From: Shigella phage Sf25 | Reading direction: 5' to 3' (one strand) | Sequence record: MF327009 | Length of the DNA: 64,000 bases | Shown here: in pieces, positions 1 to 64,000 of the stretch | Position numbering within the stretch: position 1 is the stretch's first letter | Layout of the letters: every line of letters starts with the position of its first letter | Position numbers and translations under genes: made by a program | Notes under the pieces: model-generated | Seen by the model: only the letters and a program-made list of their open reading frames with translations | Database searches by the model: none | What the model was told of the DNA's origin: nothing

Positions 1-270
1 CAGTATCTAAAATTCGCTGATATAATCTTTGTGTGTCTACGTCAGGCTTAACATGTTTAACTTCTATTTTATTAAACCAAAACTTGCGTGGAGTCTCAAC
101 TAGTCTTGGAATTCCCATACCTAAAGCTAGTTTATATTGGTCTTTGAGAGTAGTAAAAACTCTATCAGCAATCTCTCTTTCAAAAAACACAGCAGGACGA
201 TGTTCATCAAGTGGAACTGGCGCCGTAAATCCGTCTTTGTCTCGGTAAACTATCGCATATACATAAACCA
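1..270 (-). CDS. hypothetical protein, partial (N-terminal ~90 aa; 3' end beyond window start)
   Basis: Open minus-strand frame from ATG at 270 (MVYVYAIVYRDKDG...) running off the window edge. Confidence 0.4.
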
Positions 271-272
271 TA

Positions 273-1019
273 TTATCCTCGGATAAGTTTAAAAATTGAA
301 CAATTTAGCGGGTATCCTCTTTTCAGTTTAAGTTTATCAATAAAAGACAAGTTTTGATACCGCTCTACACCTTGAATAATTTTATCACACATATCATATT
401 GCATTTCTGCTTCTGACAACTTTTTCACAATTTTCCAATCCGAGCCTTTAAGAAGAACGTTCAGTTTAACAACTTCTGCGCCTTCTGCTATGCGAGAACC
501 ATCAATACGAGCTTTAAGTGCTATAATCCTTAGCTTAATGTCAGAGGTCTGTTTTGATTTAGAAAGCTGAGAAATGTGTTCAATTCGATTTTCACGCTTT
601 TTCTGTATAGCTTTAATTTGATTATAAGTCTTTTTGATTTTAGCCCATTTCTTTTCATCTAAATTTAGTTTATGAACTTTTTTCGCAGATGAACGACCAA
701 TTCGCAAAGCAAATAAATCCCGTTTTTCAATCAACTCTTCTAAAGTATAATCAGAACGAAATGTATTATACTTTTTCTTAACAGGGATAACATTTCCTTT
801 AATATATCCAATGTCATTATTAAAACGTTCTAATGATAATTTCTCTCCTTCAATACGATTATCAAAAGGTTCTCCTGAATAGGCACAAACTTTTTGATCT
901 AAAATGTTCTTAATGTAATTGAAGTCTAAGTTAAAATCTTTAGAACGTCTTTTTGCAGATGCCTGAGTGTGCTCTAAACGACGTTTAATTTTACGAATTT
1001 GGTTATTAGACAGTTTCAT
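273..1019 (-). CDS. HNH-family homing-endonuclease-like protein (mob-type)
   Basis: 248 aa; motif CAYSGEPF...SLERFNNDIGYIKGNV resembles the phage HNH endonuclease core; basic C-terminal region. Confidence 0.5.
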   Translation of the reverse strand: MKLSNNQIRKIKRRLEHTQASAKRRSKDFNLDFNYIKNILDQKVCAYSGEPFDNRIEGEKLSLERFNNDIGYIKGNVIPVKKKYNTFRSDYTLEELIEKRDLFALRIGRSSAKKVHKLNLDEKKWAKIKKTYNQIKAIQKKRENRIEHISQLSKSKQTSDIKLRIIALKARIDGSRIAEGAEVVKLNVLLKGSDWKIVKKLSEAEMQYDMCDKIIQGVERYQNLSFIDKLKLKRGYPLNCSIFKLIRG

Positions 1020-1054
1020 ATTTTTCTCACATCTTACGGACGATTTAATACTTT

Positions 1055-1090
1055 ATTACTATAACATTTTTACTTCAGATTGTAAACAAC
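1055..1090 (-). promoter_or_regulatory. T4-type early promoter (GTTTAC -35, A/T-rich -10)
   Basis: gtaaac at 1082-1087 on plus strand, i.e. GTTTAC on minus, with -10-like hexamer 17-18 nt downstream, upstream of the HNH gene. Confidence 0.45.
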
Positions 1091-1143
1091 TTTATGCAAA
1101 ATGCTTTAAAACTTTCATGGTATAATGAATCTAAGTCCTTCCA

Positions 1144-1590
1144 TTATAGATTAAATCCTTCAAAATCAAGAGTATAGATAGTATATGTTGAATACTTTTT
1201 GTACTCATATCTATCTGCAATTCTAAATACACTTCCAGCTGGTATCATTACTTCTTGTTCATCTGAAACTAATTCCATATTACGATAACGATGACTATCC
1301 GGAAACTTAAAGTTTGGATTGTATTCTTTACAGCGTAGAGCTTTTATAGCATACTCCTGGAAATTGAATACCATAGGAGCTTTGAATTCAAAAATAACTT
1401 GTGTGTTATACTCTAAAATTTCATTTAACCAAGTATGGTCATCTGGTTTATTAGTAATACAATGAATTAAAAGTTCAATTTCAGATAAATTAAACCCTTC
1501 AGAAAGTAATTCTTCACGAATAGAAGCACGCACCGATGCATCCATTGATTTTATTTTAAAATCTTTTAGTTGCATTACTGAGTATTTCAT
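1144..1590 (-). CDS. Mod-family ADP-ribosyltransferase-like protein, possibly N-terminally shortened
   Basis: 148 aa; carries E-Q-E-V (ExE) motif matching the EQEW motif of the upstream paralogue but lacks an obvious upstream Arg/STS region; start overlaps upstream stop (ATGA). Confidence 0.4.
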   Translation of the reverse strand: MKYSVMQLKDFKIKSMDASVRASIREELLSEGFNLSEIELLIHCITNKPDDHTWLNEILEYNTQVIFEFKAPMVFNFQEYAIKALRCKEYNPNFKFPDSHRYRNMELVSDEQEVMIPAGSVFRIADRYEYKKYSTYTIYTLDFEGFNL

Positions 1591-61892: not shown

Positions 61893-61903
61893 ACTTTGTG
61901 AAA

Positions 61904-62359
61904 TTATTTTAAATCGTCTGCCCAATCGAGTTTAAGAGGCTCTTTGTATTCACGGTCAAGTACAACCGGAATTTGTACATCACCGCTAAATGATAAGGGC
62001 CCAACATTATAAGACAATGTTATATGCGGTGTGTAATCATCAAAATCATGTGTAGCACCTAGTGCCCGCGCATACATGTGTCGACAGCGCAGATATTCAG
62101 AATCTAGCACAAGTACAAGAGTCGATCCATCTTGTGTTTTCCATACTTCTAAATGTCCAGAAGAAGCTACTTCAAAACTTCCACTCGATGGAACATATGG
62201 AACATTTACTCTTGAATAACATATAGTTGAATGAATTTTTTCTCTAGGAACTGGATTAGGAACACGTAAAGAGCGCTGAAGTTCTTCCAGCGCATCAAGT
62301 GTTAATTCTGAAAACTTAGCTGCTACATAAAGACCCGTTGAAAAGTCTTTAAATTCCAT
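61904..62359 (-). CDS. 57B: gp57B-like protein
   Basis: 151 aa, immediately downstream of 57A with ATGA overlap, as in T4. Confidence 0.55.
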
Positions 62360-62601
62360 TATTCTTCATCTTTTGCTTCATCTGCAGATTCAGCAGTAAG
62401 ATTCTTGACAGCTTCAACGATTTCTTCAACTTTGATGGTATCTCCAGTGATACCTACTGCACGAGCAATTTCAGCCAAAGTTCCTTGCAGAATTTTGGAT
62501 TCTTCCATCAGACGAGCAGCTTGATCCTGCGTATCAAGAATGCGAGATTTCAGAGTTACGATTTCAGCAGACAGTTTTTGTTCAATAGTTTGTTCAGACA
62601 T
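62359..62601 (-). CDS. 57A: tail-fibre assembly chaperone gp57A
   Basis: 80 aa coiled-coil protein between gene 1 and 57B. Confidence 0.65.
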
Positions 62602-63314
62602 TATAGTACCTTTAGTGTATTTTTAATTTTAGAAAAAAGTTCTTCAAGAGAACCATCGTTTGTAATTACTAAATCGCCATCACGAATTGGCAATCCAGCT
62701 TCTGTAATATGTGTATCATTGGATTTTTGACCAGGACGAACTACATGAATTACTGTAGCACCCATCGCCCTAGCCGCATCCATTTCATGATCTTGACGAG
62801 TATCAGGAACGATATAATAATCATAACCTGAGTTAAATTTATCAAGATAATCTAAAGCAAATAATTTTACCCAGTACATGCGGTCGAAGTTATTAACAAT
62901 CAAATCCGTACCTAGGGCTTGCATCAGACGACGGACTGACCATTGATCTTCAATATTATTTATAACGTCAGCAATCTTGTTAAATGCTACGAAATTAACT
63001 GCGTCATCAAAAACAAACACACCTTTAATTGGGCTTTTACTATTAAGATAGCAAAATGCTTGTTCCATAATCGTAATTACTTCTAATTTAGTCAGATTTA
63101 AATTAGTTTCACGATCATAGTCAATTCCTTCAAACTCTTTACGAGTTAAACAAGGATAGTCAGTGTTTGCTGCAAATACACCCCATGCATAAGCCAATGC
63201 ATCCTTAATAGGACCAGCAAGTTGATATTTAACTGCAGAATAATTATTCATAATAAAATCTGCAGTAGTATCTTTTCCACTACGCTTTACACCACTTAAA
63301 AAGATTAGTTTCAT
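62601..63314 (-). CDS. 1: deoxynucleoside monophosphate kinase gp1
   Basis: 237 aa; P-loop GVKRSGKDT; N-terminus MKLIFLSGVKRSGKDTTADFIM as T4 gp1. Confidence 0.85.
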   Translation of the reverse strand: MKLIFLSGVKRSGKDTTADFIMNNYSAVKYQLAGPIKDALAYAWGVFAANTDYPCLTRKEFEGIDYDRETNLNLTKLEVITIMEQAFCYLNSKSPIKGVFVFDDAVNFVAFNKIADVINNIEDQWSVRRLMQALGTDLIVNNFDRMYWVKLFALDYLDKFNSGYDYYIVPDTRQDHEMDAARAMGATVIHVVRPGQKSNDTHITEAGLPIRDGDLVITNDGSLEELFSKIKNTLKVL

Positions 63315-63363
63315 ATGTTTCTCCTCAAATTTAGTTAAGATTATAACACATGAAACTGAAGCA

Positions 63364-63894
63364 TTAAACTTCTGCTATAATTTTTCCATCTTTTTCTACT
63401 TGAAAATACGTATAAGGAATCGTTGCTGTGCATACTAAGGCTGGGTCTGAATCTTCTGTGTAGCTAAATTCTACTTCAGACAGGTCAGAAACCCAAGGCT
63501 TATAAAAATTTATTGACATCACGATTTCAGTTTTACTATTATCTAAAATGTAAAGCGTAATGTATTCAGGACCTGTTTTTTGGGCAGTATTTTCGCCTGT
63601 AAGATAGTTACTAGTTCCTAGCATCCATTCATACATTCCTATCCATGACTTAAGCTCTTCATCAACTATAAATCTCACGATGAGTGGGTCGTACTCAAAT
63701 GTAACACCTGGACGTTGTGCTCGGCCTAGTCCAAACGGCCCAGTCACGGTATCAGTAACAGGTATCCTAATTCCCGGAATAGGAACTGACTGAGCATTTA
63801 AAGTAAAAGCAGATGTAGTATTACTATGCGGTATTGATACTACAAAGTTAGTTGTATTTGCTTGGTTAAAAATTTGTTGTAGTGCTTGCGACAT
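63364..63894 (-). CDS. 3: tail completion/sheath stabiliser gp3
   Basis: Start taken at MSQALQQIF (176 aa as T4 gp3); the longer ORF to 63975 probably over-extends. Confidence 0.6.
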   Translation of the reverse strand: MSQALQQIFNQANTTNFVVSIPHSNTTSAFTLNAQSVPIPGIRIPVTDTVTGPFGLGRAQRPGVTFEYDPLIVRFIVDEELKSWIGMYEWMLGTSNYLTGENTAQKTGPEYITLYILDNSKTEIVMSINFYKPWVSDLSEVEFSYTEDSDPALVCTATIPYTYFQVEKDGKIIAEV

Positions 63895-64000
63895 ATATTC
63901 CTCATAATGCTTCATAAATGTTGGTGGTATAATGGGTCTAAGTCCCTTCCATTCAATTCCAATTAGAACAAACAATAGAAAAGAATGGAAGATAATAGAA

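Follow-up and report, generated by a model that had tools for sequence, protein, structure and literature searches.

In this study, a stretch of 64,000 nt from the sequence record of Shigella phage Sf25 (MF327009), called the window here, was analyzed. The window was the dda-to-gene-3 arm of a Tequatrovirus, and the T4-type gene order and high nucleotide identity from dda to gene 3 placed it in this T4-like group. The nearest genome was that of Shigella phage Sf24 (NC_042078 / MF327008) with about 98% identity: 98.6% over positions 1–25000 and 97.8% over 25001–50000. The two shared multi-kb near-identical tracts and an unchanged gene order from dda.1 to gene 3. T4-type records at 95–99% identity numbered more than 400 for the first two thirds of the window; for its last 14 kb there were 355. 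The final base of the window aligned with the final base of the Sf24 record, while the records of Sf21, Sf22, and Sf23 were linearized at other points than Sf24. A literature search on Sf24 returned nothing of relevance.

Exactly eight tandem duplications, of 208, 244, 114, 147, 177, 249, 249, and 249 bp, were found by TRF and a repeat finder, which bore out the number and lengths given by a sequence-only reading of the window. All eight had 2.0 copies, 100% identity, and zero indels, with the copies directly adjacent. The lengths lay between 114 and 249 nt; three were exactly 249 nt and none was longer. Placement of the duplication junctions was ambiguous by 0–2 nt. When the duplications were collapsed, the window aligned to Sf24 unbroken across every duplication site. 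With the same TRF settings, no tandem array with a period of at least 40 nt was found in the homologous 64–68 kb of Sf24, T4, HEMP5, KNP1, and TH09.

The 208-bp duplication (2238..2653, seam at 2445/2446, with block 1418–2445 to its left) covered the modB–modA.2 spacer and most of modA.2, leaving modA.2 intact once plus a partial copy. Sf24 mismatches were located at exactly −248 (2197) and +249 (2695) from this seam. The 244-bp duplication (5126..5613, seam at 5369/5370) was inside gene 56 (dCTPase). As 244 cannot be divided by 3, gene 56 was frameshifted after residue 117, and its two tblastn HSPs lay in frames −3 and −1. Variants were present at −249 relative to Sf24 and at +249 relative to HEMP5; the block from 5370 carried two non-Sf24 alleles in its first 244 nt, followed by 8 kb of identity. 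The 114-bp duplication (14194..14421, seam at 14307/14308) added 38 residues in frame to the gene 42 product (dCMP hydroxymethylase), with mismatches at −248 (14059) and +249 (14557). The 147-bp duplication (18264..18557, seam at 18410/18411) added 49 residues in frame near the N-terminus of the gene 43 product (DNA polymerase), with mismatches at −248 (18162) and +249 (18660). All mismatches of these last two seams were at codon position 3. The 947-aa gene 43 product with the duplication was looked up in protein records and none was found.

The 177-bp duplication (31301..31654, seam at 31477/31478) spanned the nrdD stop and the nrdG start. Both genes were intact despite it, and an extra 34-aa nrdG fragment was created; neither of the predicted sites, 31229 and 31727, coincided with a known variant. 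The three 249-bp duplications each added 83 residues in frame. The one in nrdC.4 (37330..37827, seam at 37578/37579) had a SNP-dense tract that stopped at 37330/37331, that is −248/−247 from the seam. In nrdC.5 (38569..39066, seam at 38817/38818 with a 2-nt ambiguity), mismatch 38571 was at −246, or at −248 at the other end of the placement ambiguity. In nrdC.6 (39764..40261, seam at 40012/40013), the right block first differed from Sf24 at exactly +249 (40262), the start of a divergent tract.

Alignment to Sf24 as the closest T-even, a check proposed in the sequence-only reading, was run and revealed six private blunt deletions, of 156, 139, 145, 83, 80, and 47 bp, together with natural polymorphisms. 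The 156-bp deletion (1417/1418) removed 52 codons of modA in frame without microhomology, and a variant was present at +248 from the seam. The 139-bp deletion (19617/19618) frameshifted gene 62 (clamp-loader subunit), whose pieces were recovered by tblastn as aa 1–117 in frame −2 and aa 165–187 in frame −1; a mismatch was at exactly −248 (19369). The 145-bp deletion (46830/46831) took away the 3' end of rI.-1 (mobD.6), 29 codons in all, together with the spacer between it and mobD.5; here too a mismatch was at exactly −248 (46582). The 83-bp deletion (58904/58905) cut rnaD (species 2 RNA) to 20 of 119 nt, and its seam was exactly 248 nt past position 58656, where a natural 523-bp indel (58134–58656) ends on the right. 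The 80-bp deletion (60020/60021) joined tRNA-Leu to tRNA-Gln as one hybrid tRNA-like sequence, which scored 32 bits against a threshold of 29 bits; nine tRNAs were counted in the window versus 10 in Sf24. No known variant was found at the sites predicted for this deletion. The 47-nt deletion (37019/37020), also private and blunt, removed the nrdC.3 RBS, start codon, and 11 codons. Microhomology, which typically accompanies illegitimate recombination, was 0–2 nt at the 14 junctions, and blunt events are also possible in nature.

The sequence-only reading had called genes 56 and 62 and a tRNA pair disrupted, and the two frameshifts and the tRNA-Leu/tRNA-Gln fusion agreed with this. The deletions in modA, rI.-1, rnaD, and nrdC.3 were missing from it.

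The distance of the seams from variant sites was investigated. Of 22 probes, 10 had an Sf24 mismatch at exactly 248 nt before a block end or 249 nt after a block start, where chance would give 0.43; a count this high did not occur in any of 200,000 random junction sets. In an offset scan of 235–264 nt, peaks appeared only at 248 for block ends and 249 for block starts. Block ends were 248 nt after a T-even variable site and block starts 249 nt before one, and the alleles at these seam-defining sites segregated among natural phages. All blocks between seams were at least 1,028 nt long, and each was collinear with natural T-even genomes. The pattern of blocks of at least 1 kb was on its own weakly significant (p ~0.07, the analyst's own estimate). 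The 47-nt nrdC.3 deletion broke both the 248/249 distance rule and the 1-kb block rule.

Sf24 had none of the 14 lesions. Its gene content differed from the window in gp155/gp156 by soc, in tk.1, in denV, and in its own e.7 allele, and it was without the 157-aa ORF of the window between e.8 and rnaC. Six other differences from Sf24 are ordinary natural polymorphisms: the 523-bp insertion, the replacements of denV and e.7, the tk.1 difference, and two differences of 174 and 335 bp were all considered as lesions and rejected on this ground. Every window segment without an Sf24 alignment matched other natural T-evens. Ordinary T-even gene-content polymorphism accounted for about half of the differences from the nearest reference that looked like deletions. 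Small indels were considered as hidden short-overlap seams; none was tandem, and several were shared with natural genomes. AP011113 was rejected as the divergent parent, as its NrdC.11 protein was identical but its DNA was 94–97% identical. Switches between Sf24-identical and divergent tracts were not accepted as proof of chimerism, with two to three of about nine boundaries at seams, which was not significant.

The 14 junctions were searched as 50-mers, checked against Sf24, in 50,697 phage records, and none was present. None was common to any of about 500 close relatives, and none occurred in the five-genome T-even panel. In exact searches, the 208-bp junction was absent from IMG/VR, JGI metagenomes, and GTDB genomes, and one 249-bp junction was absent from IMG/VR.

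Natural T4 tandem duplications exist, for example in the rII region, and are formed by illegitimate recombination. Like those of the window, they are head-to-tail and lie within a T-even genome, at a few hundred bp. The lesions could be real, formed by illegitimate recombination in a viable phage or in helper-carried defective genomes of a mixed T-even population; T-evens also show intense recombination when infections are mixed, of the eight duplications six were in frame, and several of the genes affected (modA, nrdC.4–6, and rI.-1) are non-essential. However, natural T4 duplications are rare, have no single length bound and no fixed SNP distance, and leave essential genes functional, whereas in the window essential genes were not intact, breakpoints were tied to SNPs, and sizes were bounded. 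Genes 56, 62, 42, and 43 are essential in T4; the first two were frameshifted and the last two carried insertions of 38 and 49 aa. A constant distance of 248/249 nt from SNPs has no biological mechanism, and three independent events would have to be exactly 249 bp with none longer. The copies were 100% identical, and none of the about 500 close relatives carried any of the junctions, whose microhomology of 0–2 nt would not by itself settle the question. The in-frame bias has an arithmetic explanation: both 249 and 498 can be divided by 3, and the SNPs flanking the 114- and 147-bp duplications are at codon third positions, so that the excess is apparently a by-product. Real lesions are therefore extremely unlikely. 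It is just as hard to credit a mixed T-even population whose defective genomes, with multiple tandem duplications and deletions and with genes 56 and 62 broken, were maintained through complementation by a co-infecting relative. If the lesions were real, the fixed SNP distance would require some other explanation.

The sequence-only reading had proposed an artefactual or engineered sequence. The artefact part was strongly supported by the SNP spacing, the 249-nt bound, and the blunt private junctions, and the engineered part was not, as no foreign sequence was found. Deliberate alteration, either a laboratory-engineered phage or lesions planted or simulated in silico, would fit the unnatural number and perfection of the lesions, and the collections searched held no matching junction or duplicated polymerase. 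Nevertheless, heterologous and synthetic sequence was absent from the window, as were scars and markers, and the junctions were blunt joins of native sequence. Random planting would not give a spacing of 248/249 nt from natural SNPs, and an engineer would not introduce frameshifts into genes 56 and 62. The spacing of SNPs determined where within genes the lesions lay; the positions were otherwise arbitrary and followed no design logic, so the engineered reading was unsupported and is considered very unlikely.

The window showed the features of a contig-overlap artefact: two identical adjacent copies, a length bound with a pile-up at the bound, variant spacing, and junctions absent elsewhere. 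The results suggested, with high probability, that a faulty assembly produced the eight duplications as seams, and with them no fewer than five of the six private deletions. They are almost certainly errors of the record, not biology or engineering, with the seams coming from overlapping contigs pasted end to end. Genes 56 and 62, rnaD, and the tRNA-Leu/tRNA-Gln pair are then presumably broken only on paper.

In de Bruijn graphs the overlap is k−1 and strain variants appear as bubbles, at which an assembler may break off a contig (PMC10104058). For the window, the reads would have held two alleles at variant sites, supplied by a second co-assembled T-even genotype, a recombinant swarm, or a reference in the graph. 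A seam at every SNP gap of at least 250 nt was considered and rejected, as seams were present in fewer than half of the 38 gaps of this kind counted against Sf24; because most of these SNP-free gaps were without a seam, the second allele source would not be simply Sf24. With an assembler word of about 249–250 nt (a k-mer or 250-nt reads), contigs would end one word past an unresolved variant, and adjoining contigs would then have up to 249 nt in common. Where a short shared piece between variant-specific contigs was dropped, the flanks would overlap by 498−d nt for variants d nt apart (d < 498 nt); variants further apart than 498 nt would leave a gap of d−498 nt between the flanking contigs. 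The remaining contigs may have been ordered on Sf24 and joined without overlap merging or gap marks, which would give perfect duplications and blunt deletions. The dropped pieces (unitigs) would have been 253–653 nt, whereas no kept block was shorter than 1,028 nt, and a contig filter at 1 kb would separate the two in this way.

Some observations count against this model. Common short-read assemblers seldom use a word of 249–250 nt. The asymmetry of 248 versus 249 was explained only through an assumed unitig convention. The 177-bp duplication and the tRNA deletion were without a known variant at the predicted sites, and the 47-nt deletion was a misfit.

Another computational artefact was also considered, such as consensus calling or polishing in fixed windows of about 500 nt, local re-assembly around variants with padding of about 249 nt and insertion of these blocks into an Sf24 backbone, or a buggy scaffolder or gap-closer. 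The span from variant−249 to variant+248 is 498 nt, near a 500-nt window, and the long Sf24-identical tracts and the record end point in common with Sf24 would agree with such a process. However, the two non-Sf24 alleles in the block at 5370 are not a simple reference fill, only 13 seams were found among about 1,200 differences from Sf24 in the window, and fixed tiling windows are not expected to anchor on SNPs. This kind of artefact is also very unlikely, though slightly less so than deliberate alteration.

The pasted-contig reading was compared with two known effects of graph assembly: contig ends that overlap by a k-mer or read length, of which the k-nt terminal repeat of circular SPAdes contigs is an example, and misjoins made when overlapping contigs are concatenated. 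These likewise have two perfect copies, a length bounded by the word size, breaks at strain-variant bubbles, and junctions unsupported by natural relatives. The SPAdes-type overlap is one terminal repeat, whereas the window had 13 internal seams, and the usual assembler word is 55–127 nt versus the 249–250 nt implied for the window. Unlike a plain contig-end overlap, the below-maximum overlaps and the deletions of the window would be explained only if short shared unitigs were dropped in addition.

As a by-product, a read-free test for concatenated graph contigs was obtained, which uses the finished sequence alone. Its signature is seams one word-length from the variable sites of relatives and an overlap equal to twice the word minus the SNP spacing. 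The main value of the finding is database hygiene, as the proteins predicted from the record would be spurious entries. These include DNA polymerase with 49, dCMP hydroxymethylase with 38, and NrdC.4, NrdC.5, and NrdC.6 with 83 extra residues each, as well as truncated gp56, gp62, and rI.-1 and a hybrid tRNA. Such products could give rise to false protein families or lead to domain duplications being claimed wrongly. The sequence-only reading had advised caution in interpreting single lesions biologically; this advice holds, and no lesion in the window warrants biological interpretation.

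The window was compared by megablast, in three parts, with 50,697 phage records. T-even (Tequatrovirus) matches at 95–99% identity were found in more than 400 records for each of the first two parts and in 355 for the last; no record in this search was at least 99% identical. Shigella phage Sf24 (NC_042078/MF327008) was the best match, with 98.6% identity over 1–25000 and 97.8% over 25001–50000, and its positions 104720–168112 were collinear with the window. The content was the early-gene arm encoded on the minus strand, ordered (T4 names) dda.1, modA/B, soc, 56, 61, 41, uvsX, 42, 43, 62/44/45, 46/47, a-gt, 55, nrdG/D, nrdC.1-11, tk, regB, e, the tRNA cluster, and genes 1 and 3. 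Base 64000 aligned to the final position (168112) of the Sf24 GenBank entry, which lies at an arbitrary site separating genes 3 and 2; the records of Sf21, Sf22, and Sf23, sister phages of that study, are linearised at other positions. The shared end, seen in the alignment, suggests Sf24 as an ordering reference. Dispersed repeat families of 46–69 nt with 60–95% identity were also observed in the window (15850–15940, 30150–30221, 41781–41862, 43220–43310, 46786–46831, 57906–57987, 61498–61588, and 61851–61919). On the minus strand, these candidate elements resemble what we take to be T4 early promoters (GTTTACA-type −35 and TATACT-like −10) upstream of minus-strand genes.

Eight perfect tandem duplications had been reported by the sequence-only reading, and exactly these were returned by TRF and a repeat finder: 208 bp (2238–2653), 244 bp (5126–5613), 114 bp (14194–14421), 147 bp (18264–18557), 177 bp (31301–31654), and three of 249 bp (37330–37827, 38569–39066, and 39764–40261). 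Each consisted of 2.0 indel-free copies at 100% identity, with junctions ambiguous by 0–2 nt. With the same TRF settings, no array of period at least 40 nt was found in the homologous region of Sf24, T4, HEMP5, KNP1, or TH09. Removal of the second copies gave contiguous alignment to Sf24 across all duplication sites. Five deletions of 156 bp (1417/1418, modA), 139 bp (19617/19618, gene 62), 145 bp (46830/46831, rI.-1), 83 bp (58904/58905, rnaD), and 80 bp (60020/60021, tRNA-Leu/tRNA-Gln) were all blunt. Junctions were probed with 50-mers taking 25 nt from either side; megablast requires an exact 28-mer seed, so a match was possible only in a record truly containing the junction. Locally, no probe had an exact Sf24 match longer than 27 nt. 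The eight duplication and five deletion junctions were found in none of the 50,697 phage records, and the sole match was a 31-nt chance match spanning the boundary of two concatenated probes.

Alignment to the closest T-even reference, which had been proposed for listing all indels, revealed further deletion-like and replacement sites relative to Sf24. Each difference was sorted by a five-genome natural panel, database-wide searches, and junction-specific probes; arrangements that also occur in natural phages were thus classed as ordinary polymorphisms. In mrh.1, the "174-bp" site had an arrangement common to natural phages. soc directly adjoined gene 56 at 4926–4927, as in SH7, SHFML-11, and others (98.7% identity, a single alignment piece); T4 has segF in this interval and Sf24 two small ORFs, gp155/gp156, whereas the window had neither. 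tk.1 was absent (48266–48285), as in HEMP5 and TH09, a natural gene-content polymorphism relative to Sf24, and the e.7 region (57411–57622) carried a natural allele different from that of Sf24 and common to HEMP5. An internal-head-protein gene occupied the denV place at 53523–53872, as in PP01 and SH7, whereas Sf24 and T4 have denV (endonuclease V) there; by gene content, the genotype appears to lack denV naturally. A 523-bp segment between e.8 and rnaC (58134–58656), with a 157-aa minus-strand ORF at 58138–58611, was missing in Sf24 and present in RB51, RB68, Kha5h, FelixPlatter, and hundreds more T-evens. At about 37331–37348, the window switched from SholemSchwarzbard-like and Sf24-divergent to Sf24-identical and SholemSchwarzbard-divergent; this is a mosaic or recombination boundary, located where the first 249-bp duplication begins. 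The panel genomes KX452694.1, OR424388.1, and MT446387.1 are unannotated GenBank UNVERIFIED records. At a listed 193,624 bp, KX452698.1 (Shigella phage KNP5) is unusually long for Tequatrovirus and may have assembly redundancy of its own.

Mismatches to Sf24 were tabulated around every private junction. The distance from mismatch to block end was exactly 248 nt for the 208-, 114-, and 147-bp duplications, the first 249-bp duplication, and the 139- and 145-bp deletions; it was 249 nt for the 244-bp duplication and 246 nt for the second 249-bp duplication, or 248 within its 2-nt junction ambiguity. From block start to mismatch, the distance was exactly 249 nt for the 208-, 114-, and 147-bp and third 249-bp duplications, and 248 nt for the 156-bp deletion. 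When the eight duplications were taken together with the three clean deletions, the 248/249 rule was matched by 10 of 22 probes against 0.43 expected, a count that 200,000 random junction sets never attained. An offset scan of 235–264 gave spikes only at 248 (block ends) and 249 (block starts). The 83-bp deletion lay exactly 248 nt past the right-hand boundary of the natural 523-bp indel, and this boundary acts as the variant site. No known variant was found at the predicted sites of the 177-bp duplication and the 80-bp tRNA deletion. Alleles at the seam-defining sites segregated among natural phages, indicating real polymorphisms rather than sequencing errors.

These seam (block-junction) facts fit assembly-graph contigs with a word of about 249–250 nt that ended one word-length past variant sites they could not resolve. 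It is standard background (PMC10104058) that graph contigs overlap by k−1, that strain variants form bubbles, and that contigs can end prematurely. Directly adjacent contigs would share 249 nt, giving the three 249-bp duplications, each of which had the expected variant on the expected side. If two variant-specific contigs were separated by a short shared piece and this piece was discarded, the flanks would overlap by 498−d nt (d, variant spacing), giving the duplications of 208, 244, 114, 147, and 177 bp; with d above 498, a gap of d−498 nt would give the deletions of 156, 139, 145, 83, and 80 bp. The discarded pieces would measure 253–653 nt and the retained blocks were all at least 1,028 nt, as expected from a 1-kb contig filter. 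Filtering, reference ordering, and concatenation are steps that we infer to have followed the contig ends; ordering on Sf24 would give the shared record end, and the 248/249 asymmetry would follow from an assumed unitig convention. Most SNP-free gaps relative to Sf24 had no seam, so the second-allele source was not simply Sf24. Another computational artefact, for example consensus calling in windows or the insertion of padded local assemblies into a reference, is possible but less consistent, since the block from 5370 has non-Sf24 alleles.

The lengths of six of the eight duplications and of the modA deletion were multiples of three. Reading this in-frame excess as a sign of selection is a misreading, the cause being arithmetic (249 = 3 × 83; 498 = 3 × 166). 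Both defining SNPs of the 114-bp duplication, and both of the 147-bp duplication, were at codon third positions, making d a multiple of three in each.

Disruption of genes 56 and 62 and of a tRNA pair had been noted from the sequence and was borne out: both genes were frameshifted, and tRNA-Leu and tRNA-Gln were fused, leaving 9 tRNAs against 10 in Sf24. modA lost 52 aa in frame, rI.-1 lost its final 29 aa, and rnaD retained 20 of 119 nt. Gene 42 gained 38 aa, gene 43 gained 49 aa, and nrdC.4, nrdC.5, and nrdC.6 gained 83 aa each; modA.2 was intact with an additional partial copy, and nrdD and nrdG were both intact with an additional nrdG fragment. Genes 56 and 62 are essential in T4; with both frameshifted, plaques would not form.

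A private blunt 47-nt deletion (37019–37020) removed the RBS, the start codon, and the first 11 codons of nrdC.3. Its junction was in none of the 50,697 phage records, whereas the 47 nt were present in SholemSchwarzbard, slur07, and Sf23, the closest natural relatives. It matched neither the 248/249 SNP distance rule nor the block-size rule, and may be a true private deletion or another type of error.

Four observations led to the rejection of real biology for the duplications and deletions: the seams lay at a constant distance from SNPs, duplication length was capped at 249 nt, essential genes were broken, and about 500 close relatives lacked the junctions. The sequence-only reading had offered an artefactual or engineered origin. 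The SNP-anchored seams supported the artefact; deliberate engineering, like random in-silico planting, was rejected because no foreign sequence was found and the seams were anchored on natural SNPs. The duplication and deletion pattern is not a real biological feature, and the value of the result lies in the flagging of the record and in a read-free seam diagnostic.
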